A DNA stretch of 51,249 bases from Girardia tigrina. Taxonomy: Eukaryota. Numbering within the stretch: the stretch's first letter is position 1; each line of letters opens with the position of its first letter. The notes under the pieces are model-generated. The model worked only from the letters and a program-made list of their open reading frames with translations. It was not told the DNA's origin and did no database searches. A program made the position numbers and the translations under genes. This document shows positions 4,960 through 50,420 of the stretch, piece after piece. The stretch covers positions 1 to 51,249 of the forward strand of contig MQRK01172036.1 of assembly GCA_001938485.1 (NCBI GenBank), read 5' to 3'.

Positions 4960-5085
4960 TTTGTATGTTTTTGAAAATATTCTGTAGTAATTCTAAAAAG
5001 TATTGTGAGATGGTCTCTTGTGAGGCATTATCGATCAAATCCCTTTATCCATAAATTAGTGTTCAACCAAGCCCCTCTTCCCTTG
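4960..5085 (+). mobile_element. Penelope-like element, GIY-YIG C-terminal remnant
   Basis: Translates NSKKYCEMVSCEALSIKSLYP*ISVQPS, matching the YWERV[ST]CEALLIKSLSPSINVQ tail of other PLE copies here; ends where a Tigger-like element starts. Confidence 0.7.
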
Positions 5086-6060: not shown

Positions 6061-7405
6061 AATACAAGATTTTCTAGTATACGGGTTTTGATTTATTTTT
6101 ATCTTATTTTATTTATTTATTTTTATTTTATTATTTATTTATTTTTTTATTATTTATTTTTTATTTTTTTATTTATTTTTATTTATTCTTAAAAGCTCTA
6201 AGTCCTTCAGAATATGGAATTTTAATGATTTTTTGTATTCTTCAGTATACAAACAAGCAAATAGAACACAACATTAAGATAACATTAGACAAATTATGTA
6301 CATATGCACGAGTTAAGAAACAATTAAAAGAATAAAATATTGAAGAATACAAACAAATCATTAAAATTCCATATTCTGAAGGATTTAGAGCTTTTAAGAA
6401 GAGTATTTGTAGAACAATAAATAGTGCTAAAGTAGTCTCTATCACATCCAAAGTTCAAAGTTTCCTTTCAAATAAATCGAAAACAGTTTGTGGTTCGCAA
6501 GCTAATCTCGTATATAAATCTAATTTTCACGGGTGTGAAAACTCGTACATTGGAGAGAAAGAAACGCCAACATCCAACACCCAGAGAAAAGAAAACTTGG
6601 AAGAAGAGAACCAGGAAGAGCCGACATCAAACCAATCCAATCCTCAGTTGACGTACAAAACTGTGAGTTTGCCGAGGATACAGCCGAACGACGATGCCGA
6701 AGAGACGCACTTACAATACCGACTGCCAGCCGATTACTAGACTACAAGAGGACAATTTAAGTACCCATTTCGCGGTTGTTACGCGTCCACCGTAACAGCC
6801 AACGGCATGTACGGCCATGGTACCAAGTTCCATGGTTGGTCGTTCGTTACTGGCAAGCTGACAGCTCAGAGGGGGAAGGCCACTGACCCCGGGGGGTCAT
6901 TAAGGACTTTAGTTTGGGTGGACCCTCTAAAGAGCCTTAGAATCAATACCATTACAGAGATGGGAGGCCCACATTGGAGAGACAAATCGTCATCTCAAAA
7001 CCCGTATTAGTGAGCACTCGCAAATGAGTCGATCGAGTAAGGTTCTTGATCATTGGTTATGTTGTAAAGATAGAACCTCGTCCATTTCAAAAGATGAGTT
7101 TTCTGTTCTACAAAAGGGATTCGATTTACATTACAAGTGAAAATTTTGTGAACTTCTACTAGTAAGGCACTACATCTCATCAATTAACATTCAGAATGGG
7201 CAAATTAAGGTTATTTATCAAAACAAAAAGGTTAGTTATCAAAACTTAAAATTTTTAATTAAAGATATTTTATGTCATTATTACCTAATAATAATTTAAT
7301 AAATAATAATATATTTTTTGAATTGTTCCATTTAAACATAATAAACTTTTTAAAATCGTGTTATTAAAACTATTTAATATACATGTACTAAATTTTCGAA
7401 AATTG

Positions 7406-7440
7406 ATGATGATGATGTATATAAACATCGAAACATATCA
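7406..7440 (+). ncRNA. Degenerate minimal hammerhead ribozyme
   Basis: aTGATGA-T-GATGT-atataa-ACATC-GAAA-CATATC: stem II intact, C3 changed, stem III palindrome broken. Confidence 0.5.
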
Positions 7441-9168: not shown

Positions 9169-10938
9169 CGGTACGTGACATTTTGGCGCAGGTCGTTTTG
9201 GCGCGAAGTCGTTTTGGTGCGAGGTCATTTTGGGACAAAGCCGTTTTTTATTAAATCAAAAGTCCGTGTTTATTTAAAAAAATCTGTTTTCTACAGATGG
9301 ATACATAAATAAAACATTTTACTCAAACATTTTTTATTAAATCAAAAGTCCATGTTTATTAGTTCATCAAAAAATTATGCGCGATTCCTCTAAGGTGCTC
9401 GATGATGTTTTGTTCTCTGTAAGTCTCACCAATTGTTCTGATCCAGGCATCTGCAGCGACGTATTTTCTGCGCTTTACAGGTGGCTGATCTCCACGAACG
9501 AATGATCGTGTTCTGAAGCAGATGAACCAGCATAGTCTCGGAAGTGATGCAGCGCAACTTCGAACTGCCATGATAATGACTGGAATCAATAGGGCAACAG
9601 ATACATCTGAAATTCCATCAGTTATCTTTAAAAGTGCTCTCCAAGGAACCTCGACTGCCGTTCAAGCGAATATGCCAAAGAAAGATGCAGCTCCTAATTA
9701 ATTTTAAAATTGAAGATCCACAGCTTCAATTATCATTCCGGATGTATACAGAAGTTACGAAGTCGCACCAGATCAGATGGGAGAAATTCTTTTATGGGAT
9801 TCCGGAGAACAAGATGAAGATCGCATTTTTCTCTTTGGCCGACAGTCGAATGGTGATTGGAGTAACCAAATGGACATACTATATGTGGATGAAACATTTA
9901 ACCTAGCTCCTGCTCTTTTTGCACCGATATATGTAATCATGGCAAACAGAAGAGGATTTGTGCTACCGAACAAAGAAGAAAGAACATACCGACGATTGTT
10001 TGAAGCCATTAAAGAATTGTGGCCATATTTCAACCCGTCGTCAATTTCTATCGACTTTGAAAAAGCCACAATTGGAGCTATTCGGGCTGTGTTTCCGAAT
10101 TGTGCAATCCATGGATACATCTTTTATTTAACGAAGAACATGCGGCAGAAGCTAGCAGAGGAAGGTCTGCTTAGCCGATATAACATCGATCCTGAATTCG
10201 CTTTGTCTGCCAGAATGATAGGCGCTCTCTCCTTTATTCCAATCGAAGTGCTTAGGAGGCACTGGAGAACGAAATTATGGAGGACCTCACACAAATAATA
10301 GATTGGTTTGAACATGACTACATTGGACGTCGAAATCGTAACCAGACTCGACGTCGTGCATTATTTCCTTCTCATACGTGGTCTGCCTACGAGAGAACAG
10401 TGAATGGAGAGGATCGAACGAACAACTATGTGGAAGCAGCACATCGAAGATTGCAAGCCGAATTCGGGGTGGATAATCCAAACATATGGAAATTTATAGA
10501 CGGCATTCGAGGTGTTCAAAAAGAACGTGACCTTATATATGAGCAATTCGTTCGTGGAGATCAGCCGCCTGTAAAGCGCAGAAAATACGTCGCTGCAGAT
10601 GACAGGATCAGAACAATTGTTGGGACTTACAGAGAACGAAACATAATCGAGTACCTTAGAGGAATCGCGCATATTTTTTGATGGACTAATAAACACGGAC
10701 TTTTGATTTAATAAAAAAAGTTTTGAGTAAAATGTTTTATTAAAGTATCCATCTGTAGAAAACAGATTTTTTTAAATAAACACGGACTTTTGATTTAATA
10801 AAAAACGGCTTTGCGCCAAAATGACCTCGCCCCAAAATGATCTCACGCCAAAACGGCTTCGCGCCAAAACGACCTACGCCCAAACGGCGGCGCAAAAATG
10901 GTCGCGCCAAAATGCCGGCGCTAAAACGGCCTGCTTCG
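9169..10938 (+). mobile_element. Mutator-like (MULE) DNA transposon, 5'-deleted, with about 330-bp inverted arms
   Basis: 9-bp TSD atttaaact at 9160-9168 and 10939-10947; subterminal gcgccaaaac repeats; arms 9169-9503 and about 10546-10938; internal MULE transposase. Confidence 0.93.
9504..10681 (+). pseudogene. MULE transposase, frameshifted and lacking its N-terminus
   Basis: Motifs LYVDETFNLAP, IDFEKATIGAIRAVFP, HGYIFYL (degenerate GCxFH) and RTNNYVEAAHRRL are split over several frames (ORFs 9777-10298 and 10277-10681). Confidence 0.9.
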
Positions 10939-11548
10939 ATTTAAACTTTAGAATAAGAACAGTAAAATTTGTGAAATTTACTGCAAAAATATTTATAGTA
11001 AATTGCAAAGAAAATACAAAAAAATAAGAAATTTGATAAATAAAATTCAAGTATGAGTTTTCAAATATTTTATAATTACATTTTCTAACAAAATAATATT
11101 CAAAATAATCCATACCTATGCTGGGATATCCATCAAGCAGTCTTTTTTCATGAACTGCTCAAGCATCGTTTCTGTACATTTTAATATTTATTTTGGTTGC
11201 AATGAGGGTTATATGGTATATTGATAAGGTACGTTATTATGGCGGAGAAAGAAGCTTAAATGTTTTTCAATTATGATCTTATTATCTTAGTGGCCCATCT
11301 TGTAATGATATAAATGAAGAAAGTATTTCGAAAAAAACATTTTACAAATTATGGATTGATTAAAAATTCTTATGCTTCAATATAATTAATGTTACGGAAA
11401 ACTTATTAATTAGTGTATTATAATCTTTATCTTTGCTCCATTTGAGAGCAGAAATGTTTATAAAAAAATAAGAAAGATTATACCTTCCTATATCTATCAT
11501 CTAAGCAAAACATTTAAGCATTTGTTCAAAAATTAATAAAATAATTAC

Positions 11549-11699
11549 CAAAAGAATCGGTTAAAACTCGACAAGTGATGATCGTTCCACAAGTGCTAAA
11601 AAGATCACGCAATTTCTCTTGATTATAATTTCTTGGCACAGATCCTACGTAAAGATTCGCTCCTTTGATCATTTCAGAACTTGGCCGCGCTAAAGAAAC
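11549..11699 (-). CDS. elav: Internal coding exon of an ELAV/Hu-like RNA-binding protein (RRM1 end, linker, RRM2 start)
   Basis: VSLARPSSEMIKGANLYVGSVPRNYNQEKLRDLFSTCGTIITCRVLTDSF matches the ELAV consensus VSYARPSSxxIKxANLYVSGLP...FSxxGxIITSRIL; acceptor tattcttttctacag|GTT and donor G|gtaatt; open frame. Confidence 0.9.
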
Positions 11700-12990
11700 C
11701 TGTAGAAAAGAATACAAGTAAATTTGATATATTTTACAATAATTATATAAAATAAAAATAAATTAAAAATATTTTTTAAAAAGAAATCAAAAAATTAAAA
11801 TAAAACATATCGACATTTTTTTAAAAAAATAGAATTCAAAAATTATTTTGTGTTTCTTTTAATCAGATAAATGAATAAACAAAAAAGGCATAGGAAATTT
11901 AGAGACAAAATTAGTTGAGGAATTATGGGAAAAATGAGCAGTCAATAATAATTATAAAAGTTATTATTATAGAAGTCAGTCGAAACATCAATCAAACTGT
12001 GGACTTGATTAAACTTCAATGACAGATTCGCCTTCAAATGGGTACGAAGGATATTTTGTCACAAAATTATCCCAAACGTTTATTTATAAACATAAGCAAG
12101 TTGTCTGGAAAAAAGATTAACATATCATTTGTATATCAAACTAGTAAAATGTTAAGAATTTCCTTTCTTGCTTTAATAATAATTTTAGTAATAATGATAA
12201 AAAGGGTATTTTTAAAGGTGTATTTAAATGCAAATGAAAAAAATGTTTTTTGAAATTGATGTCAAAAAATGGTTAATTAATAAAAACGTTTAATATTAAA
12301 AAAACAACATAGAAAAACGGATGGTTGCCAAGGCATGTGAGAAGCTAGAGTGAGTGGAAAAGCGTAAGAATGATAGTTGAAGAGTTGGAAGTCGATGAAA
12401 GAACAAGTTTTGACGAAAAGAAAGGAAGTTATCGTTAAGTTAGTAAAAAAGGAAATTAAATGCGGAAATTTTAGATGTTTAGTAGACGCAAAACTAAAAC
12501 CTGATTGTTAAAAATTTGTCGAAACGTTTGATATGAGTAAAAAAAAGATTTTTACCCTTATATCGTAGGATGTGAGATAAATTTTAGATAAATGTGATTC
12601 ACATTAACATACTGTTGTACATAAAGAATTAGAGATCTTTGCTACTAAAGATGCGATGTTATTTCTGAAGTTTTGAAAACTGACGCAACATGGTTGAACT
12701 CAGAAGTGTATCGATATTATTTTTAAAAAACAAAAACAATGCATTATCATTTTATGGGGTTTATTTTTATGAATTTTGCCACTGTACATTATATCTGCAT
12801 CCTAGAAAAACTCAGATGGTTAAATCCGTTTTATAGGATCAATTATGTTTACTTTAAAATAATGCATCATCTGAAGTTTCAGTTGAAACCCTCAAGTTTC
12901 TTGAAAGTAAGCATTGCCATCTTAATCAAAAATCTGTTTACTCTCAGGATGTAAATATCAGCGACAAAAATGTTTTCCAAAAATGTTACG

Positions 12991-21199: not shown

Positions 21200-21211
<12 letters not shown>

Positions 21212-22330
21212 TTCTCACATCCCCCACGATTTAAATGGCTTTAGCCATTCTACATTCCTGATCAAAATTCTACCATCTAACTCCAATTCATAATGTCTTA
21301 CGTGTCTTCGTTTCTTTATTGTTGCCGGGTTCATATATCGATCTCCTTCTTTTGTTATGTATTCTTTCTTTATAAACACTTTATCTTTAACTTGAAAATT
21401 TTGATTGGTCTCTACCTAATTATTGATTTTTTCTTTCCTGGCCTTTTCTTGATTGATGTTTTTCTACCAATGTCTTAACTTCTGCCTATAATATTTCCGC
21501 TGGTGAGACGCCTATGGTAGCTTGAATTGTGCTATTTAACATAAATCCCACCTCTAGAAAAATTTCCGTCCAGTCTTTGTGAGTTTGATCTTTTCTTCGT
21601 ATATTCATGGGTCTGTAAATGTTCTGAATTGTCGTATATGATCCCATTGGTATTACGTTGGTAGGGACTCGAATATACTATCTCAACTTTAAACTTATGT
21701 ATCTGCTAAATTGATCTTTTATCATGAGTATGTATTGGTATTCATTAATATTTCTATTAAAAGATCCACAAAAATCCATATATAGTTTTTGGAAGGGTTT
21801 TTCAGGCGACTTTTTTCATGTGCTTCTCTTTTGTTTTTGTTGGTAGGGTCTTCCTTTTTTGACAATTTAAACAGCCTTGTACGATTTTTTATCGTTTTTC
21901 TCATATCATCTACATCAAAGTTATTTTTAAAATAATTTTACACTTTCTTGCAACCAACAAGACATCTTGTGTAAATATCTTCCACAAATTCACTTAATAA
22001 TAAATTATTCCCTTGTAATCTTAAAAAAACACAAAAAAATACTTTTTGAAGGGCTAAACCATGGTTTGGAGAAGCTGAAGGCACTTGATTTTCCGATAAT
22101 CATTGTTTTCCCTTTCTGTTTTCATACACAATCCACCTTTTGTCTCTCGTCACATTCTGTTTTAAAAATAGGTCGGCAATAAATCCTTTTTAAAACTTCA
22201 TACATGTTTGACCGTACGTTTTTGTTCTATTTGGTGAGATCATGCGGTTCCGATACTTCCAGTCTTCAATTCTTCAAATAATTTAAATTTTTGGTTCGAC
22301 TCAATGTTTTCGGGTAAAAAGACATTACCA
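21200..22330 (-). mobile_element. Gypsy LTR retrotransposon 3' part (integrase, PPT, LTR start)
   Basis: Minus strand ...IRNVEWLKPFK followed by gggggA|TGTGAG at 21214-21225; VSPAEI and MLNSTIQAT motifs shared with the 41210-41860 copy. Confidence 0.85.
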
Positions 22331-22399: not shown

Positions 22400-24062
22400 T
22401 AACTTAAGTTAATCGGGATACACAGCGCAAATGTTATTTGTTGCTACAGGTGCCGAATTTGAAACAGCCCAAGCCTAGCAAAACTTTCTACCATACACAT
22501 CATACTTTGCTATATGCCAATCGTCAGGGTTGGAACTAAATCCTGATGATATTTTTGAGTTTTGTATGGTTTCGGTTTTCAATTCATTCTAAGATTCTCC
22601 GACCCATGAATTAACCTATTCCTTTGATGGTGGTTTTGGATTACCATTTTTGGTATAAACAACAGAATCAGAGTTCTTCCATCCATTAATACTAAAATAT
22701 AACAAATCTTTCAATGAACGAAAAATTCCTATATCTCCTGCTTGTAGATAAGGTGTCAAACCCCCTGGGATCACGATCATTTCAACATTTCTCTTAATAC
22801 AATGTTTTTTTATTTGTGGGCCTAAATGAACTCGACATGAATCCCAAATAATACACGTACTTTTGCTTAAATCAATCAAAGGAAACATATGGTCGATCCA
22901 TTTTATAATTAATTCTTGGTTAACCCAGGATTTTGATTGAGTAGGATGCAATATACGATTTTGTTTACAAATAGGACTTCCATCCTTCCATTTATGGATT
23001 ACCAAAGGCATTGCCTTTCTACCATCTGCCCAAATAGAAATCAGTGCTGTTACTCTCATTGAACTAAAACCATTTAATTTCATTACTACATTGCGTGCTC
23101 CGAGTAAATCCACAGTATTTGTTCTGGAATCCTCAAAAAATACTGCAGTTTCATCCATCAATAAAGTATTTTTAATATTTAAATAAGGCGATGATTTTTT
23201 AGATATCTCATATAATTAACAGCACGTAAATTTATGTCAGAGTCTGATAATGTTGTTAAATTGGTAGTTCGCCTAAGTGTAAATCCATTTCTCTTCGTAC
23301 ATCATGTTATCCAATTTCCATAAGCCTTTAATTTAATATTAAACTCTTTACTCAATGCTTCTGCCCTATCAGAAATATACTTCCGACTAACTTTCATTTT
23401 TCGTATTCTAAGATCTATTATCTCATCGCAAATAATTTGTTCTATAGTTCCCAAACTGGTTTTCTTTCCTGCTCCAAATGATCTTCTCATTGATGGTTTT
23501 TGATTAGTAAGTTTGTCTTTGTTTCTAAACCACTGTTGTAACATAGAATGATCATATATTTCCCCGATTTTTAAAAACTTAAATAGTTATACTAATAGGG
23601 TCGTGATACTATTTATATATTATCACTAAAACTTTTTTAAATTGGTGATATTATTTGGGTAGTGTTACTAAATGGCGATATCCGGTAGTAAACATTGAAA
23701 ACGTCAAAGGAAATATCATCTAACAAAAATAATCTTTTCCAGAATAGAAAATCATTAAAACTAAAATAACAATAATTTAAAGAAAAAAACATATAATAAA
23801 AATTCTGAAAAGAAACAAAAACATTAAATTAAATGAAATTAATTTGTTTAATTTTAAAATCTTTCAATATTTCCATTTATTCCACTAAATTCCGAAATTG
23901 GGATAATTTTCTGCACAACAGGAAACATCATATTTAATGTCATATTTTTCTTAAAAAATATAACGTTAATTTTGATTTTTATAAAATTATTTTCGTAAAT
24001 TTAATCAGAATTTCCATTATATCACAGTTTATTTTAAAAATTAATAGAGGCGGTGGATAATT
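22400..24062 (-). mobile_element. pogo-family transposon (decayed; CENP-B-type HTH and DDE_1 domains)
   Basis: ORF 23302-23544 HTH region; ORF 22616-23161 MDETAVFF...IIWDSCRVH...IPGGLTPYLQAGD; termini uncertain. Confidence 0.85.
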
Positions 24063-24253: not shown

Positions 24254-24295
<42 letters not shown>

Positions 24296-24319
24296 GAAAC
24301 TGAATTTTCAGTATTGAAG

Positions 24320-24540
24320 AAAATTATTGACACATATCATGACAGGATAGTCGCTGAGGCATTATTAATAAAGCATTTAAAACCATGCTTAAATGTCGAA
24401 AGTAAATTGTGCAATCATATTTAAATGTTTTAAATAAAAAAGAGATTAATTGAGCAATAGTTAAAGTACCATATAAATGAATATTAATCTGAAATCTATT
24501 CAAATCTGAATTATGCTATAATAGTGAAACATGTTTGTTG
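24320..24540 (+). mobile_element. PLE tail with degenerate hammerhead
   Basis: HDRIVAEALLIKHLKPCLNVES; then CTGAAtt-AT-GCTAT-a-ATAGT-GAAA-CATGT-T at 24506-24535. Confidence 0.65.
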
Positions 24541-24618: not shown

Positions 24619-25560
24619 TTATATGTAATTAATGATTTTATACAGCTCTACTTTGTCAATTTTTAATGTTTTTGATTGGTTGTAGTGTCTTATTAATAAT
24701 GATTCCACAGAATTGCCGCGCATAATGATGATCAAAGCCCTTCTGTAAAAAAGAAAACTCATTCTTTGATGTATTACGGGTTCTATTTTTATAATGTAAC
24801 CAAGTATCAAGAACCTTTTTCGATCGTTTTGATTGTGAATGATGACTAATCCGTGATGAAGATTTGACTCTATCCAATGTAGACCTTATCTCTTTTTCAA
24901 TGGTATTGAATCTCTTGGCTATTTAGAGGATCTCACGAAACAAATGAGGATCTAGCCTCCCCAAAAAGGCCTGATACGGGATCGGATTGCTTATGTCTTC
25001 GAGATCGTTTTAGCTTTCAAGAAATTATCAATTGCATTTCCAGAAATAGGACATCTTAATTCTCCTCTCGCAAAAAAGTCTGTGATCCTAAAAGACAGTT
25101 ATGTTTCTTCGGCACTGATCATTTATTCCATTATCGTAAAGATAGACTTAGGTTCCGTAGTTAAATCACTTAGACTTTTTGAAATACCTTTAGTATTTTT
25201 GTCCTCTCCTTCAAATGAGTGGCTGATCTGATTAATTTTCTCTGATTGATTTGACGAGATTGTGACAATTTTGGCTCCAACACCTTAGTTAAGCAACACT
25301 TGTAATAAAAGTTAGCAACACCATTGTTTTAAATGTCTTTTTTACAGCATATATATTTGTAAAGTTATGCATCTTCTTTGATATTCATCATCGATGTAGC
25401 TTCTATAAAGTTTGGAGTTGCACCACTTCATGGTCTTTTCTGACATGTCTATTGAGACATTTTTGTTTGGTTAACTCCTTAAAGCATCCATCTTTTGGAC
25501 ATTGTAGATACATCTAATGTTCCGGTTTCCAACTTAAGTAGCTATTGTAAATCCACACAA
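24619..25560 (-). mobile_element. Penelope-like element (zinc-finger-insert family, copy 2)
   Basis: Minus strand: LQCPKDGCFKELTKQKCLNRHVRKDH (about 25430-25507), AEET*LSFRITDFFARGELRCPISG, DPLNSQEIQYH*KRDKVYIG, then HSQSKRSKKVLDTW...FSFLQKGFDHHYARQFC / ESLLIRHYN. Confidence 0.8.
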
Positions 25561-26819: not shown

Positions 26820-27146
26820 AGTTTATAATGTTCAGAAATGGTTGTGTATGTAAATATCGTCAACATATCTTTTGTACACAAAAGATCTTTAGCTAGTATC
26901 TGCGTTGATTTGACTTTCAATCAATTGCATGCAAATTGAGGACAATGTTGGAACAAGGGGTGAGACCATAACTAAACCATATTTCAGAATGTACCATTCC
27001 CCATTGAAGAGAAATGAAACATTTTAGTACTAAAAATTAGCATAGTAAATAATGCTTAATAATTATAAACTCTCAACATAAAGAAACAATACATTCAGCA
27101 TTTGTCAAAAGAGATCGATTTCGAACAAAGTCTGAAATCAAAAATA
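26820..27146 (-). pseudogene. PLE reverse transcriptase fragment
   Basis: VSFLFNGEWYILKYGLVMVSPLVPTLSSICMQLIE...VYKRYVDDIY; upstream V-E-S-L motif; cut by the Helitron. Confidence 0.8.
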
Positions 27147-33189: not shown

Positions 33190-34290
33190 TTAAAATCAAA
33201 TTTTATTGCAATATATTTCGGTGGATTTTCCACCATCTTCAGGCTGAATTAACAACAATTTCGTTGTCTTATATATAGCAAATTGATGATTATACAAACA
33301 TCTTGCATAATAACTAATTAAATATTTTCAACAAATTGGAAGAGAGACTTGTTTGGACATTAATGGACGGACTAAGTGATTTAATCATAATGCCTCACAA
33401 GTAACTCTTTCCCAATATTTTTTAAAATTACTGCACAATATTTTAAAATTAGTTGTTTTCACCTCCGACTTTTAACCCTTCATATGTCCAGCAATATTAC
33501 TCCCACTACCCAATCGTCCATGCTCCTATATCCGTTTACAGAGATGACGAGACGTCTCTTCAATGTATGTAGAGTTACACCCATTACACGAAAATTCATA
33601 AACCAGATTGGAACATAAACTCAAAGGAGTACGAGATTTATTGCTGAATATACTTTGAATTTTGTAAGATTTAGAAAAGATTTTTAAATAATCTGATGTA
33701 CTCTTAAAAAGCGTGTTTTTAAAATTATCAAAATCAATATTAATAACTTCATTAAAATTTAAATAATAATTATACATAGATTCAATAGACGATTGGAACT
33801 TAAATCTATCTAATGTATTTCGAATTCCATGTTTTGAACTAAATTTTAGTAAATTCAATTCATCTTTAGATAAAACAATTTTACTTAAATTTAAAACAGT
33901 ATTTTCTACATTAATTGTCTTAAATTGTTAAGTTTTTTATTGTGTCCAGTAATTTTATCATTAATTAATTTGCCGGAAATACTATTAGAAAATTCATTAC
34001 ACAATTGAAAGCAATAATCATCACTTACATTTCTATAGAGCAGCTTCAACTATTGTAAATTCAAATAAATATTAATGATTATTTCTTAAATTATTATAAA
34101 TTATTGAAATTATATCCTCTTTTGGAAAAAAACTTTCTCGAAAATATTCAAATATTCAAATCCATCACATGCTTCAAATTTCTATTTAACTTAAATATTT
34201 TCTTAGACAAAATGTATTTGTCGTTCATATTGAAATCTTTTGAAATTATTCTTTTCATTTAGAAAAAACTTTTTTCATCATAATTTTTTT
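33190..34290 (-). mobile_element. PLE with the RT deleted (N-terminal region fused to GIY-YIG) and an intact 3' hammerhead
   Basis: HNKKLNNL...VLNLSKIVLSKDELNLLKF (PLE N-terminus) runs in frame into FSNKSRTPLSLCSNLVYEFSCNGCNSTYIEETSRHLCKRI, followed by YWERVTCEAL and IKSLSPSINVQ. Confidence 0.8.
33203..33250 (-). ncRNA. Minimal type I hammerhead ribozyme with intact catalytic core
   Basis: gc-CUGAAGA-U-GGUGGA-aaa-UCCACC-GAA-AUAUAU-U-gc: complete CUGANGA/GAAA core, 6-bp stem II, palindromic stem III, AUU cleavage triplet; lies 3' of the PLE endonuclease. Confidence 0.85.
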
Positions 34291-34404: not shown

Positions 34405-34780
34405 TTCATCTTAAATGTTTCGGATTAATACTTAAATCCACCTGTATATCGACGCAAAAATGATGATTATGTATTCTAATGTAATAATCACACCAATAAA
34501 AGATTCTCATTAAGATGGTTGAGACTGCCGATTAAACAGGGGAATGTGACCTAATTAACAATGCTTCACACGACACTCTCTCCCAATAATTGTCAAAATG
34601 CTTACAAAGAATTTTGAAATTATCAAAATTAACATCACATTTACATTTTTTCCTATGTTCTGCAATGTTACTTTTACACTCTTTTCGACCATGTTCTTGA
34701 ATTCGTTTACAGAGATGACGGGCAGTCACTCCAATGTTTTTAGTATCACCCCATGATATTTATATTCATAAACAAGATCA
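34405..34780 (-). mobile_element. PLE GIY-YIG tail (upstream pseudo-LTR-like unit)
   Basis: LVYEYKYHG...IGVTARHLCKRIQEHGRK...YWERVSCEALLIRSHSPV; hammerhead-like half GGATT-taagtatt-AATCC-GAAA-CAT at about 34412-34440. Confidence 0.8.
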
Positions 34781-39378: not shown

Positions 39379-40454
39379 GTGAACCAATATTCTACGGAAC
39401 AACGATGTTTTATGGTTTTATTTTATCGGGATACGAATTAACCATCTGAAGCGGTTAAATTATTCAAGAAAAAGTTTGGAAATCACCACAATATAGATCC
39501 AAAGACAATTAAAAGGTTAGTAAAAGCATTTAAAATGAATTAAACTATTTTTATCATTATTTTAGAGTATTAAATACGGCTATTGTCAAAGAAAATATTA
39601 AGAAAGTTGAGGAATTGATCAAGCAAAGTCCTTTGACATCGATTAGAATGGTAAGCAAGCAACTGGAGATCAGCAAATCATCGGTACAAAGAATTATCAA
39701 GAAAGAATTGTCGTTATTTCCATACAAGATTCAAACCAATCAACCCATAAATCAACTTTCTGGTGAAAGACGTTTGGAATTTGCAACTCAAATTTTGACA
39801 ATGGCAGAAAATAACGATATTGATTTTGGAAAGATTTTGTTTTCAGATGAAGCGCACTTTCAAATGGAAGGATACGTTAATAAGCAAAATTGTAGAATTT
39901 GGGGATCAGAAAATCCACATTATTCCATTATTAAACCCTTGCATCCGAAAAGATTAACTGTCTGGTGTGGTATATTTTCAGAAATGATTATCGGACCGGT
40001 TATCTTTTCTGAGAATATTAAATCAACAGTTTATTTAAACATTCTTCAAGTACAAATGGTACCTTATTTGTATGGTTTGGGAAAAATAAGCTACTTTTAT
40101 TTCATACAAGATAGTGCAAGACCGCATAGAACCTGTGAAGCATTCGATTATCTTTCAGAACATTTCAACGGTCGAATAATAGGATTGGATTCAGAGAAAT
40201 TTACTGGTAAAGGAATATGTTGACCTCCTTATTCACCTGGTTTGAATCCATGCGATTATTTTCTTTGGGGATTCATAAAGGATGGTATTTATAGAACTCC
40301 AGTGGTTAATTGGAAAGATTTAAAAAATCGAATTGAAACCAGGTTTCGAGAGATCACTCCCTAAATGTTAAAAAGAGTTGTAAACAACTTTGAGCAACGA
40401 TTAAGAAATGTAATTGTTACAGAAGGATCTCACTTTGAAAATCTTAAATATTAA
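39379..40454 (+). pseudogene. rosa/DD41D-like Tc1/mariner transposase with a few stops
   Basis: YSTEQRCFMV...KTIKRLVKAF N-terminal HTH; FSDEAHFQMEGYVNKQNCRIWG; QDSARPH; *PPYSPGLNPCDYFLWG; EGSHFENLKY*. Possible right end gggacactatg|ta at about 40720. Confidence 0.9.
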
Positions 40455-41209
40455 TAAATATTGTTTTTTATTGAATACCTTTGTTACTGTTCATTTTAGG
40501 GCATATGTTTACTTCCAAAAAGTTGTTTAAAATTGAATAATCCATTAAATGAGTCATTATTTAACTTGTTTTTCGAACTTTTTTGAAAATCTTTGTTATG
40601 TAATTTTTTTTATGATGCTAGATTTTTAAAAAAAAATTATTAGTCAATATACAATATATAGACCCTAAACGTCGATTTAACATCAAAATGAGCGAAGGCA
40701 TACCCTGTGGGACACTATGTATAATTTATCATTATTCTCAATTAATTTTAAGGTGATCGTTAATTTTATTTACCGTATTGTCAATAATTTATTTATCAAC
40801 CAATATCTAAAATGTTTATCTACAGTATCTACGAAATATCTTTACTCAGAACCATTCTTATAATTATAATTTTAGAAATGTTATGTCAACGATACGTAAC
40901 CGCGGCAGTGAGAGCCATATACAGCTTTTCACTTGGTCAAGTTTTAAATTTTGAACGACGGGAGTGAAATTTGACAGTTCTTTTAGTTTCTCTGAACTGT
41001 TTGTTGCGCACGTACATGCAAATTGGTTTATTTTGACTTCTGATGTCACATTGATTTGTACATTCTTTTTATTTTATTAAAATTCAAAACACCAATCTGA
41101 ATTGCCAGACTTATTTTTATAACAATTGGAATTGTCTTTGGGACGATTCGCAGTAAAGCTTTCATACCATAAAATTTAAATTGATAAGATCTTTGATACT
41201 GATCAGTAT

Positions 41210-41860
41210 TTTCTCCAAAGGAAATCCATGTTGATAGAGAAAAAACATTTAAATCGGTTTTGTTCAAAGATATTGTGAAAAGGTTCAAAGTCGAGATAAT
41301 CTATTCAAGTCCATATCATCATAATACAAATGGGATAGTGGAAAGACAATTTCGAACAATCAGAGATGCTATAAATATTAGGATGAAGAACGGAGACCAC
41401 AGAGATTGGACAGAAGTTTTGTCGGAAATAGAATTTATGTTGAATAGTACAGTTCAAGCTACGACAGGTGTTTCACCGGCTGAAATAATATTTGGGAGAC
41501 GATTAAGACATTGATGGAAGAACAATAAAGAAACTTACTGAAACCCAGTTAATGTCGAACAAAATGTAGAGACAAGAAGAGTTTTTGAAATTGGAGACAG
41601 AGTGTTGATTAAAAAAGAAAATATATCAAAAGAAGATTAACGTTAAATGGGTCCCGCAATTGTGTTGAAACGCAATCACGGAAGGAGTTACGAGTTACAG
41701 CTCGAAGATAGTAGAATTTTGATAAGAAATGTTGAATGGCTAAAGCAATTTAAACCGAGGGGGATGTGAGGAATGTTTTGAATTGTGTGTTGATATTTGT
41801 GCATGTTGTATGTTGATTCGGATTGTGCATCTCCTACACAGATGGATGATTGGTATTTTC
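41210..41860 (+). mobile_element. Gypsy LTR retrotransposon 3' part (integrase, GPY/F region, PPT, LTR start)
   Basis: SSPYHHNTNGIVERQFRTI...NSTVQATTGVSPAEIIFGR...FEIGDRVL...GPAIV...IRNVEWLK; PPT gaggggga 41757-41764, then TGTGAG. Confidence 0.9.
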
Positions 41861-42059: not shown

Positions 42060-43450
42060 CCGTAAATTCCGGACTAAAGGCCGTACTTAAAAACCTGAAA
42101 TGAGTCATAATTTAAGAGTTGCGGTTTATATGTTAATGTTTTAAGTGTTCAAAAAAAGATATTTTAAATTAATTTAAATATTTGTTTAAATATTCTTTAA
42201 ACAAGTCATAATTCAAAATTTTTTACGGTATATTCTTTTTACGGTTAGTTTACGTTATAATAAATTATTTCAATTTTAGCCATGAACCGATCTTTATATA
42301 CTTCAGAGTGGAAATTAAGAGCAATTAAAGTAATTCAATCAAATCGAAATCGTAAAGCTGCAAAAATCGTAAAGTCAATGATCAGAAGATGGAGAAAGCA
42401 AGAAGATGAGTTGAGACAAGTTAAAAAATATCGTAAGAGCTTTCGTGGAAACACTCCAAGATGGACACATCTTGAAGATGATCTTAAGAATTGGGTCTAT
42501 GAAATGAGATCAGTTGGTGGAAGCCTTTCAACGGTCTCTATACGGCTAAAAGTTAAGGCACTAGCTAAAGAATTGGGAATTATGAATTTCTCAGGAAGAT
42601 TCATGAAACGAAATAATCTTTCGATTCGGTGCAAAATGACATTAGCCCAACGCCTTCCTGCAGATTTTGAAGAAAAGGCCAGCATATTGTCAAACAAAAA
42701 TTACAGAGAAGAATATACATCATGATAACATTTTCAATATGGATGAAGTATCTATCCATTTTGATATGCCAGCTAATCACACCATTGAACAGGTTGGTGC
42801 TAAATCAGTTCCAATTATGACAACGGGAAACGAAAAAACATCATGTACTGTTGTTTTAGCTTATTTTTCGAGTGGATTAAAGTTACCACCAATGGTAATT
42901 TTTTAAAGGAAAACATTGCCTAAAGGTAAATTTCCTGATGGAGTCAAATGAAAAAGGATGGATGGACGAAAAATTAATGCAAGCATGGGTTGGTGAAGTT
43001 TTAATTAAGAGACCAGGTGGGTTCTTCCACACATCATCCTCAATGCTTATCTGTGATTCAATGCGTGCACATCTTACCGAAGCTGTAAAGTCATTACTTA
43101 GACGTGCCAATACTGTCTTATCGGTTATCCCTGGCGGATTGACTAAGATTGTTCAACCTCTAGATATTTCAGTCAATAAATCATTTAAAGCCAAATTAAG
43201 AAACACTTAGGAAGAGTGGATGATGTCCGGAGATAAAAAAAACAGGTAGACAAAACTAATAAAATATTTTGGTGAATATATATTTAGTGTTATTAGTTTA
43301 TTTTCTTTAAACTGATTTATTTAAAATAGGCTTAAAATCCTTACATTTAGTGTGCGGCTTATAATACGGCGAATTGTACATGCGGCTATTACGTTAATAT
43401 TTTTTTTGGGAAAAGCAGGCAATGTGCGGCTTATAGTGCGGAAATTACGG
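42060..43450 (+). mobile_element. pogo-family (POGK/Passer-like) DNA transposon, both TIRs present, frameshifted transposase
   Basis: TA|ccgtaaattccggactaaaggccg ... cggcttatagtgcggaaattacgg|TA; ORF pieces 42282-42725, 42667-42906 (NMDEV, TTGNEK, KLPPMVIF) and 42938-43210 (DSMRAH, IPGGLTKIVQPLDISVNKSFK). Confidence 0.93.
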
Positions 43451-44689
43451 TAGTATGAATTCAACAAAATATCAAATAGCGAAAGTCTTTTGAATGATTG
43501 TTGTCAAAACAATTCTGCTTGTGATGTTAATAAATGTTTGAAAAATCATACTGATGTTGTTAATATGTACATTTAAACTATTTTCAGGTTTTACTCTTCA
43601 AATTTCACTTTATTAATTTCTGCAATAATTTTATCGTGCACATTTCCATATATTAAACTAAATATGTAAAATTCAACATACTAAATTAAAAATATTCCTC
43701 ATAATTCATTTATTTGAATTTTATTACTAAAATTATGAAATAATGTCTTTTATTTTTCATAGTTGTGTTTATTTGTAATTTTGGAAAATATTTAATTATA
43801 TTAAATAAATAATTTAATTTATGTATGGTTCTTTTTAGAATATTTAAAATAGGATTGCAGCTATCTCAATGCTCATATGTACCCACTATATTAGGAATAC
43901 GAAAATAGATCAAGTAATTAATAATATTAATACTTTGACTTAATTGTTTGAAAACATTTTATGAATATTATTTTAATATTTCTAAAAATAAAAAAATTAA
44001 AATTAAAAAATTAATTTGATACGATAATTAACAGATTATTTTATCTTAATTAGTTTGTTAAACATTTCTCTTCACATTCAAGTATTTTTTTGATTAAAAA
44101 AATGATTTTTATTTCGCAATAATTTTTAAATAAATTCCATTAAAAAAATTAGAAATTTAATGAGTTTGTTTTGGAAAGATAATAATTTTAACATATTTTA
44201 TTTACTCTATTAAAAGCAAAATATCACGAAACAATTTTTTTCGACAGAAATTTTCTTAATTCCAAAATTCAATAAATTGAATTTATTTTTTTCGAATAAT
44301 TTCTAATTTCTAATGAAAAATCTATTTTTTTCAGTTCATTAAAACAAAATTAAATTAAACGTATCATTATTTAATGGTACACAATAAATATTCTTTTGAA
44401 AGGTTTTAATATTATATTTATTTGAAACGAAAAATTTATTCTTAAAAAAATAGTTACCCATTTCAAAATTACCAGATTTTTATAATAAAAATATTTATGT
44501 ACTTTTTATTTGTTTAAACGTATTGGAAAATCATTTATTGCTAATTATAAAACAAAATGTAAAAAAATATAAAACAAAAGATTTTAAAAATAAAATGTAT
44601 ATGTATATATAATTTAACTAAAGTTTTTTTAAGATCGACCTTGTTTCAAAGTTTCATACTGCATAACCTACAATTATAATTTTTAAAAT

Positions 44690-45300
44690 TTTTCGAAAAC
44701 GATTTTTTGATTGCAAGGTAATTTTGTTAATAAATTTAATTGTTATTGGTGTAAAAACTCGTACATAAGTTCAAGGAACGTCCAGAAGAAACGATTCAAA
44801 CACGAAATTGATAGGAATTCAAATACCTGATCTAAGATTTAATACGAAAAGAATTCTAGACAAAATTTTTTATTCGAAAATGCCACAACCACATGTATAT
44901 ATGATTGTTTGTACAGTATCATGGTGTTATAAGGAATACTCAAAACAGAAAGACTTAAATGGACACATGAAACGAGTGTACTCGAACAATGAGTGTTCAA
45001 TGAGCATTATACAACCGGAAAAGATGACTGTCACCAGAATTATAAAACAAATAGATGGCTAAAGATGCATTTGATTTAGGATCATAGACTGGAATTTTAT
45101 GACAAAAGATAACATTTTAATAATGTACACAGAGACTAAAAATATATTTTGTGGAAGTATCTGGGGGACAACACCAACTGCCCCCACCTTATGCACGGTA
45201 CTTATTCGCAGTTATGAGAATCATTATTAATGATACATTACAACCTATTGATTATTATTCAAGGTTGACATAGGAAACAAACATTTAAATCAATATTCAA
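44690..45300 (+). mobile_element. Penelope-like element (zinc-finger-insert family, copy 3, internally deleted)
   Basis: SKTIF*LQGNFVNKFNCYWCKNSYI, then CTVSWCYKEYSKQKDLNGHMKRVY (44910-44981), tttaggatcatagact (FRIID, versus FRITD in copy 2), then ESLLMIHYN tail. Confidence 0.75.
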
Positions 45301-45684
45301 ATATTTCATAAATTATATTTTACACACCATTTGTGGTTTCACCAAATACGCAGCAAGACCATCGAAGCATGAATAATTAGTTTTTTGTTTTGATATTGAA
45401 GTCGATAACAACGATTGCTAGTGTATAATGCAGTATTTTGTCTTCTTGGGGTTATTGAAGAAGATCCATTTCCCATCGTCATAGTCGCAATACTTTGTTT
45501 CTTTGGAATTAGCTGTTGAGAAGAAATAAACCACCAATCAAAGTATCTCTGTTTCACTTAATGAGGTTCCTAATTGCATTGCTTGAGAATCCTTTTCAAT
45601 GATTTCAATCGTAAGGAAACTGTTTGTTGCGTAATTCCAGTGACTTTACAATTTCCTCTTAGATTATCAACTTATAATGCTTTC

Positions 45685-45950
45685 CTTACTCAATCAACTC
45701 AATTGTGAATGATCCGGGGTTCGAGATGACTATTTTGAATGATATTTAAATTATTAAACCAGATCAGCTTGCAATCCGCAAATAGTTTTCGATTTATTTG
45801 AGATGAAGCTTTCAACTTTGGATGTCATGGAAACCTCTTTGAAACTACCGCTTTTTTGCTAATGTTCTTCCTAAAGGCTTTAAATCCTTCAGAGTACAGT
45901 ATTTTGATTATTTGATTGTAGTCTTTGATGTTTTCTTTTAGTCCATTTGT
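45685..45950 (-). mobile_element. PLE of the same family with the YIG region deleted
   Basis: IIKILYSEGFKAFRK...SNKSKTICGLQADLV**FKYH joined directly to SHLEPRI / HSQLS*LSK. Confidence 0.7.
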
Positions 45951-48779: not shown

Positions 48780-50420
48780 TTTAGAAAACATGTTTTTTCT
48801 TTATTACGTCATCGTTATGAATTCTAATGACTGATTAGCAATCAACTGATATTGTTTATATAGCTGTAATTAAAATACAATTACCTCATTCAGGTCTTAC
48901 GTTATATACTTTAATGTGATTGGATAAATCACTTTGCACGTTTAAACTGGGTTTCAAAAACGTAAATTAACAGTTTTTCAATTATTATCATTTCATAATT
49001 ATAACAAAAGTTACTGATTAAAGATTAAAATTCACTGTCATGTCTCTTCCTTTAATTTCCATGACACTTCAACATATTATCGATAATTGAGCTATTCTAC
49101 TTAATTGAGTATGTTCAGCGATTCTAGTACGGATGAGAGGATTTGTCTCTCATATGTACAAAATTCTTCTTGATTGGGTATGATCTGCAATTCTAGTACG
49201 GAGGTGACGATTTGTCTCTCCTATGTACAAAATTCACATTTGTGACATTTATATTGGTAAACAAGATAATTTTTCATATTCAACCTTTATTAGAAAAATA
49301 GCTTGAGATTTTATTAGTTGAAAATAATATTTTAATTTTAACTCATACTGAAACAGGTTTCTCTAGAAAACGTTTAAACTATTTTGCTCCTTCAGAAAAC
49401 GGAAATTTTGAAAAAAAATAATGCTTCATCTTTCCCTTTTTTGTTACATTCGTTATACGGTTGTTATTATTCCATTTTAAATAAATTGACTCATTAGTAT
49501 TTTTAATAAGGTTTGTGAGTAGGAATAGTTATGTAATCAATATTGTGTGTTACTAACAGAAGTAACTAAGATTATTTGCGTAATAATTATTGAGTGATTG
49601 CTGATGAGATTGATTGTGCAAAGTCAGTTGTGATGATACAATAATATGGGTTACTTGTCTGATGTTGAATGTATGTTGAATGTATGTTGATAGTATGTGT
49701 CTTTGAGATTGTAAAGCAATGAAAAAGCTTTGAAGATGTGAGTTATTATAACATCACAATTTTCTCCATTAAATAGTCGAGATTATTGATATTGTGTTAT
49801 AGTTAATAAATCATATAATCGGAATTTGTCATTTTATTTTAAATGGATAACAAGGTTAATCCAAAACTTTATGTTATTTTTAACGAAGATGTTAAAATCC
49901 AAACATCCCTGTATAAAGCAGTATCTGTTGGGTTTCCGAAGACTCCATGATAGAAATGATTTTATTTCTTATACTTATTTTTAAAAAACAAAAACATGTC
50001 ATCTACATATCGAGTATAGAAGTTTGGTATTTCACTAGAATAAAGACTAATTTTTTGTTGAAAATTTTCTAAGAAAATTAAAGCCATTAACGGGATCAGA
50101 GGTGAACTCATAGCTACTTCATCAATTTGCATGTACTAATAATCATTAAATAAGATAAGAATATTGTTTTGCTAAATTCATGCTTTGGTGCTCATTGGCT
50201 TTGCTTTATCTCCAATAATTCATCCTAAAAATTGAATTGAACATAAAGTTGAATTGTTTGATCTAATGGAACATTTTTAAAAAGATTTACAATGTCAAAA
50301 GAAGCCATAATCTAATATCTTAATTTGCTTTCAATTTTCAATTTTTTCTACGAATTCAAATTAAAAACTGGAAAGGGGTTATTGATTAATAATTTAATTA
50401 ATTTCTAAATCTGGAATTAC
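48780..50420 (-). mobile_element. Penelope-like element with RT and GIY-YIG, decayed
   Basis: MASFDIVNLFKNVPLDQTI; QIDEVAMSSPLIPLMALIF; FYTRYVDDMF; RKPTDTALY; FPFSEG; LVYQYKCHKCE; YIGETNRHLRTRI; LKPSLNVQ. Confidence 0.9.

Follow-up and report, generated by a model that had tools for sequence, protein, structure and literature searches.

The locus analysed here raises the question whether the GIY-YIG nuclease of a Penelope-like element (PLE) has acquired C2H2 zinc fingers of its own, or whether a foreign element has entered the nuclease gene. It lies in a stretch of 51,249 nucleotides of Girardia tigrina DNA (contig MQRK01172036.1), in the following called the window, which is AT-rich, gapped and full of decayed transposons, and in which intron-split genes and EN+ PLEs point to an animal genome. 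A first-pass annotation had read the segment as a PLE lineage with the architecture RT-[CxxC-YIG]-ZF1-ZF2-[YIG nuclease], i.e. as a candidate natural zinc-finger nuclease, and had named a second possibility, namely a parasite with PLE endonuclease genes as its specific insertion site. Our analysis favours the latter, and the parasite is almost certainly a LINE with three C-terminal C2H2 fingers.

Anatomy of the interrupted nuclease gene

The host PLE of copy 1 is 5'-truncated. Its remaining upstream part, which comprises the RT-EN linker and the first half of the GIY-YIG domain up to YIGE, is found at 6246..6558 on the plus strand (92/104 residues identical to aa 348-451 of the database PLE protein P0002). 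At the 5' end of this host copy, positions 6352-6400 recur as an inverted copy (6186..6234, minus strand; 49-nt arms, 96% complementary), and inverted structures have been described for PLE insertions (PMC8557442). The second half of the nuclease follows at 6971..7215 (+; 72/82 residues identical to P0002 aa 448-529) and is out of frame with the first half. Between the two halves lie 412 bp (6559..6970, +) with a GC content of 0.50, as compared to 0.31 and 0.36 in the flanks, in agreement with the GC-richer segment that had been noted before.

The repeat that had been described on both sides of this insert is an exact 12-bp direct repeat. Its left copy consists of the YIGE codons (6547..6558, +), and its right copy (6971..6982, +) marks the 3' junction of the insert, as is evident also from the junction comparison with copy 2. 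There is no other exact 12-mer repeat within 6240-7260, and shuffling of this segment produces some 12-mer repeat in 5.9% of the shuffles; the repeat is therefore informative because it lies exactly on both homology boundaries, and not because of its length. As microhomology is possible at the 5' junction, the target-site duplication (TSD) may fall a little short of 12 bp.

The PLE frame indeed enters the insert, where it reads LVYKSNFHGCENSYIGE, but the proposed continuity ends there. An in-frame TAG is present at 6738..6740 (+), upstream of the finger, and insert and repeat together amount to 424 bp, which is why IGETNRH resumes in a different frame. An open RT-ZF-ZF-GIY-YIG frame, the suggested proof of the fusion, is thus broken in copy 1 by a stop plus a frame change. 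The finger-like motif itself, with tyrosine in place of the first cysteine, is where it had been seen (Y-x4-C-x12-H-x4-H, 6762..6833, +). It aligns to the last C-x4-C-x12-H-x4-H of P0027, P0028, P0005, P0007 and P0031, i.e. it corresponds to a decayed third finger of a LINE ORF. A Pfam search returned no zinc-finger match for the copy 1 finger, and the C2H2 matches of the fingers in copies 2 and 3 (see below) are weak and under the curated cut-offs (E 0.005 and 0.0004, respectively), so that the suggested zf-C2H2 check was negative for the finger in question and gave sub-threshold matches for the other two copies. The exchange of the first Cys of finger 3 to Tyr (6762-6764) is recurrent, as it is also found in the database fragments P0026 and P0029, which belong to different families.

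The insert as the 3' end of a LINE

A query comprising the fused frame was compared with 1.84 billion representatives and gave 24 matches, 21 to the PLE part and three to the insert, and none of the 24 spanned both parts. The three insert matches are the C-termini of P0005, P0007 and P0026, and further searches matched the insert to the C-termini of P0027-P0031. In P0005, three C2H2 fingers come after a non-LTR RT. The longer-form search gave one match among 593 candidates, which is P0027, and the shorter-form search gave five matches among 556 candidates. P0027 is one protein of 1169 aa, the start of which looks incomplete, and contains Exo_endo_phos_2 (E 5e-7), RVT_1 (E 3e-34) and three C2H2 patterns. 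It aligns to LINE-1 ORF2p (E 6.5e-28), with the ETH, GDFN and SDH motifs of APE in register, and its top matches in an Atlas search are APE-RT clusters at 0.97-0.98; an Atlas search with the finger region gave generic C2H2 clusters only. The order of an N-terminal APE and a subsequent non-LTR RT is hence present in the relative P0027, whereas the window retains the 3' end only.

The copy 1 insert begins right after finger 2 of such a LINE and shares 85/123 residues with P0028 aa 329-453, up to the last residue of P0028, and 69/114 residues with the full-length P0027. Its last part (6905..6970, +) comprises the ORF end, with the stop of the P0028-type ORF at 6938-6940, and a short 3' tail of ~30 nt, after which the repeat follows. 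This part resembles the tail of copy 2 (47/64 aligned bases identical, a score reached by 0/1000 shuffles). The 412-bp insert is thus almost certainly the 3' end of a LINE. As judged from the alignments, copy 1 is a 5'-truncated LINE with an intact 3' end and a target-site duplication; an intact 3' end is also found in copy 2.

The RT and APE motifs of the LINE relatives look to us like those of the RTE clade, and we take the RT thumb motifs of P0027 to resemble RTE rather than I-group elements. As this likeness is one of motifs, we term the LINE only “RTE-like”. Its families are mutually 42-49% identical (49% for P0027 and P0005). Plant RTEs have a 3' tail of short tandem repeats (PMC3747384); no such tail is visible at the two intact 3' ends in the window (copies 1 and 2), both of which directly abut the target.

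Other identities of the insert were considered and rejected. An intron is not indicated, as the insert ends lack a GT-AG pair by inspection, and a DNA transposon is not indicated either: of 38 inverted pairs, the 25 longest include none that would form terminal inverted repeats of the insert. For a ribozyme or retrozyme insert, there was no relevant Rfam match, and folding of the 3' tails did not surpass that of shuffled sequence (z -0.06 and 0.29); Rfam gave five matches on the window, all of them microRNA-family annotations and four of them on AT repeats. The idea that the 3' tail of the insert might be a second GIY-YIG first half or mimic the sequence upstream of the target found no agreement in any of 10 comparisons (0/10 significant, p 0.11-0.99). 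Scans for the DNA context of relatives, two in bacterial/archaeal genomes (with 14 and 48 pattern matches, of which none was confirmed) and one in plasmids, yielded nothing.

The host is an ordinary PLE

Penelope/Poseidon-type PLEs consist of an RT, followed at the C-terminus by a GIY-YIG domain with a CxxC between GIY and YIG (PMC8557442). The 536-aa protein P0002 contains RT (RVT_1, E 2e-11 in Pfam) and GIY-YIG, has the CxxC between GIY and YIG by inspection, and reads uninterrupted across the insertion site. The flanks of copy 1 are 88% identical to P0002 on either side of the insert, and the host has the hallmarks of a canonical EN+ PLE, i.e. an RT plus a C-terminal GIY-YIG with CxxC. A linker CxxC finger was not seen in P0002 by eye, which fits a Penelope/Poseidon assignment. 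The host shows nothing unusual, and its copies in the window differ from such PLEs by LINE insertion and decay.

The fetched PLE relatives give the same picture. The downstream-half query found two proteins among 14 candidates. A total of 30 proteins was fetched, 20 with the CxxC-YIG motif, two PLE fragments that stop before YIG, and eight of LINE type. All 20 proteins with the motif continue straight into the rest of the nuclease, with the PLE proteins having been searched as 50% clusters, within which a finger fusion could stay hidden. The sole C2H2 pattern match among the PLE proteins, in P0023, is the nuclease's own CxxC-H-H, and no sequence similarity was found between the eight LINE-type and the 22 PLE-type proteins. 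The two database PLE fragments P0016 and P0025 depart from their family just before YIG; they may be further interruptions or plain frameshifts.

Could the GIY-YIG nuclease nevertheless have gained a C2H2 array, and work as a natural zinc-finger nuclease? The insert does begin in the PLE frame, and Adineta vaga has PLE ORFs with long in-frame inserts (PMC3846280). The insert, however, carries the C-terminus, stop and 3' tail of a LINE, the frame is interrupted by a stop and a frameshift, and the continuity of the GIY-YIG domain in all 20 fetched proteins with the motif, the lack of similarity between the LINE-type and PLE-type proteins, and the lack of any match that covers both parts (0/24) point in the same direction. 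We therefore regard a zinc-finger nuclease lineage as extremely improbable, and the architecture that had been proposed for it is abandoned: its frame is broken, its intact relatives are continuous, and the inserted part is the C-terminus of an APE-RT protein. We see in the host an ordinary PLE that the insert entered secondarily.

Further LINE remnants in the same PLE family

That the insertion is not a one-off event, as had been stated, is borne out by three LINE remnants in this PLE family. Homologous inserts are present at 24881..25507 (-, copy 2) and 44901..45094 (+, copy 3), but an identical placement at both junctions can be seen in copy 1 only; the claim that all inserts sit at the same place holds for copy 2 with respect to the 3' junction, and for copy 3 with respect to the 5' side.

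The insert of copy 2 contains finger 1, the linker, part of finger 3, the C-terminus and the 3' tail of a P0031/P0026-like LINE family. Its best match is P0031 (69/161 residues), and in tblastn comparisons it matched P0031 with E 1e-11, versus 0.002-0.09 for P0028. The second half of the PLE nuclease (24641..24880, -; 49/71 residues identical to P0002) begins at the very base at which it begins in copy 1, according to the junction comparison. An upstream PLE half was not detectable at copy 2 (p 0.19-0.58), and the composite could therefore also have existed before, with copy 2 as one of its 5'-truncated copies. A PLE RT remnant lies upstream on the same strand (26847..27023, -; 31/59 residues identical to P0002 aa 179-237), which is a candidate link only.

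In copy 3, the first half of the PLE nuclease (44650..44767, +) ends at YI; 17/27 residues are identical to P0002, and the DNA match to copy 1 was reached by 0/1000 shuffles. LINE fingers 1 and 2 begin ~110-130 bp past this end of the PLE similarity. Their best match is P0005 (26/64 residues), with Pfam zf-C2H2_6 at E 0.0004, below the cut-off, and the 3' junction is lost. The last residues of the PLE nuclease are found at 45218..45307 (+; 14/28 residues identical to P0002 aa 508-535, with a DNA match to copy 2). The ~110 bp 3' of YI had no significant match to PLE or LINE (one of five tests with p=0.016). A continuation of the PLE past YI (p 0.18-0.82) and a LINE C-terminus after finger 2 (p 0.45-0.73) were unsupported, and an arrangement with finger 3 before finger 1 was dropped, as the alignment is collinear, with finger 1 followed by finger 2.

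This PLE family is represented by a fourth copy (45600..45944, -), which has no insert and lacks ~26-30 nt across the target site near 45736-45740. This deletion may be a cut-and-repair scar or ordinary decay, and small deletions are common among these PLE copies.

Targeted insertion or a single origin

We consider it likely that a target-specific, RTE-like LINE parasitises PLE nuclease genes at one set position within the YIG codons. The case for targeting is made by three decayed copies in one 51-kb window, with both junctions preserved in copy 1 only. All three LINE remnants of the window (3/3) lie in the P0002 family of PLEs, in sense orientation, and at or near the YIG codons, and the 3' junctions of copies 1 and 2 fall on one and the same PLE base. 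The 5' ends vary, as copy 1 begins after finger 2, and copies 2 and 3 before finger 1. A 3' junction that is shared by independent insertions, which is the mark of target-specific elements, is thus given by copies 1 and 2, which are two cases only. Under a uniform-insertion model, the exact base of 1 of 7 sites would be hit in the right orientation with p about 7e-5 per insertion, the model having been framed after seeing the data.

The PLE site could in principle be a mere hot spot of a LINE that is not strictly specific and has most of its copies elsewhere in the genome. A single window samples little of the genome, broad integration has been seen for the characterised RTE-1 and Vingi elements (PMC13708176), and Utopia includes families of weak specificity (PMC4640811). 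A profile of the eight LINE proteins, run on all six frames of the window, returned 21 rows with an iE of 10 or less; the eight rows with iE <0.001 were all within the three loci, and the next row was at 0.054. Neither protein profile, tblastn nor nhmmer detected a stray LINE tail or ORF fragment elsewhere in the window, and in view of the 3/3 remnants in this PLE family, we regard the hot-spot explanation as unlikely. In other PLE families of the window, three YIG loci are empty (occupancy 3/4 versus 0/3, Fisher p=0.11), which may reflect family-level recognition or chance.

A further question is whether the three remnants go back to one event. An ordinary LINE without target preference could long ago have entered a PLE master copy just once, and the composite would then have been passively copied by the PLE machinery and have decayed into copies 1-3. 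The high occupancy of one PLE family (3/4) and the one 3' junction common to copies 1 and 2 agree with this, as does the frequency of deletions in these copies. Moreover, identity between copies 1 and 2 is 73% in the 3' tails and 72% in the PLE flanks, i.e. tail and flanks appear equally diverged; we read this equality as indicating a conserved LINE 3' end, but a single origin predicts the same. The LINE parts themselves argue against common descent. In the tree, copy 1 clusters with P0027/28/29 to the exclusion of copies 2 and 3 (support 99/100; second tree 100/99), and the closest LINE relative is P0031 for copy 2 and P0005 for copy 3, so that inserts 1 and 2 match LINE proteins that are only 42-49% identical to each other. 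An AU test against copies 1 and 2 as a clade gave a borderline p=0.042 (LG+G4; copy 2 filled 48% of the columns); copy 3 was left out, as it is without the segment in question. In addition, copies 2 and 3 reach further 5' than copy 1, the truncation of which lies at its duplication, and the host flanks differ in their identity to P0002 (88% for copy 1, 69% for copy 2 and 63% for copy 3), with the flanks of copy 1 being far closer to the intact P0002 than to copy 2. Due to the different LINE families, the AU result, the differing 5' ends and the unequal host flank identities, copies 1-3 are most likely not one insertion handed down, as far as such comparisons can tell, and a single origin appears quite unlikely.

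A possible mechanism of targeted insertion

How could repeated insertion at the YIG codons be achieved? Target-primed reverse transcription is established LINE biology, and it would account for the fixed 3' junction, the variable 5' ends and the duplication. The LINE would be one long ORF with APE endonuclease, RT and three C-terminal C2H2 fingers. A first nick of the bottom strand within the Tyr codon would prime cDNA synthesis from the 3' end of the element, and this synthesis would halt early at variable points, giving the variable 5' ends. A top-strand nick ~12 nt downstream would then cause the duplication. After the insertion, YIG and the downstream nuclease lie apart and in different frames, and the host nuclease is thereby inactivated. 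For the LINE, the presumable gain would be a harmless multicopy landing site and, as all three inserts are in sense orientation, possibly read-through transcription.

Recognition of the site could be accomplished in several ways. It may well be that the APE domain reads the target, which we give a little less than an even chance, and in R1Bm and Tx1L it is the APE domain that reads the target site (PMC1950540). A reading of the target by the three fingers is less likely, and a guidance of insertion by pairing of read-through RNA with the target is the least likely of these options. The complete scenario, in which an RTE-like LINE lineage of sufficient age to comprise families that are ~50% identical uses three C2H2 fingers to find YIG codons and knocks out the nuclease by insertion, is doubtful as a whole.

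Relation to known elements

The closest precedent is Tx1L of Xenopus laevis. Tx1L and Tx2L are APE-type non-LTR elements that insert site-specifically into another transposon, Tx1D (PMC1950540, PMC6719617), and the likeness consists in an APE-type LINE that inserts into another transposon. The target described here differs, as it is the coding sequence of a retroelement nuclease motif and not a DNA transposon, and so does the LINE, the ORF of which ends in three C2H2 fingers and the motifs of which look RTE-like. A precise 3' junction, variable 5' ends and several families per multicopy target site have been described for R1, Tx1, R2, NeSL/Utopia and Keno (PMC4640811), and the window LINE shares with these elements the precise 3' junction, the variable 5' ends and the use of one site by several families. 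Most target-specific families fall in the RLE clades, Tx1 and R1, and we found no PLE genes among the targets named there (PMC4640811).

With respect to the protein, RTE-2_OV of Octopus vulgaris and RTE-1_MD have a single ORF of ~1100-1200 aa that encodes an endonuclease, an RT and one C2H2 finger, the finger being called relatively rare in RTE elements (PMC9115989). The window LINE has three fingers instead of one, no tandem-repeat tail at its two intact 3' ends, and is apparently site-specific, whereas RTE-1_MD is listed as random (PMC13708176). Vingi and Ingi LINEs are APE-RT elements with C-terminal C2H2 fingers, and in this they are alike, but the RT thumb motifs of P0027 appear closer to RTE than to the I group. 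In the openly accessible literature that was searched, we found no report of LINEs targeting PLE genes.

If the targeting holds true, an RTE-like lineage aimed at the PLE nuclease motif would represent a further origin of specificity, as sequence-specific APE retrotransposons have been described mainly in the R1 and Tx1 clades (PMC4640811), and a retroelement would use another retroelement as a niche while disabling that host. If it is the fingers that guide, the LINE would be an APE retrotransposon that zinc fingers direct to a specific site, and one that does not belong to the R1 and Tx1 clades. RTE-1 and Vingi proteins, which integrate at random, are in development as RNA-delivered gene writers (PMC13708176), and a natural site-specific relative with C2H2 fingers would make it testable whether fingers can steer an APE retrotransposon. 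For annotation, nested LINE remnants in PLEs are a trap, as they mimic a zinc-finger nuclease fusion.

Other elements in the window

A tentative hammerhead-like motif lies 3' of the host PLE of copy 1 (7403..7433, +; pattern match, no Rfam match, fold z -0.96). Another one, at 33210-33242 (-) and 3' of a PLE nuclease, folds better than shuffles (z -2.99), also with no Rfam match. Remnants of other PLE families are found at 33320-33909, 34499-34747 and 48901-50404 (-) as well as at 4971-5084 and 24293-24472 (+), and those that include YIG are uninterrupted; at 49084-49246, a YIGET segment is tandemly duplicated. An element with 325-bp inverted ends that are 92% identical surrounds a broken ORF at 9181-10869, which we take to be a MULE transposase. 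The remnants at 22616-23586, 39534-40223, 42264-43210 and 41046-41774 together with 21210-21694 presumably derive from pogo, Tc1/mariner and LTR-integrase genes. Finally, the ORF at 11526-11762 (-) looks like an exon, contains an RNA recognition motif (RRM_1, E 2.3e-8) and is probably a host gene.
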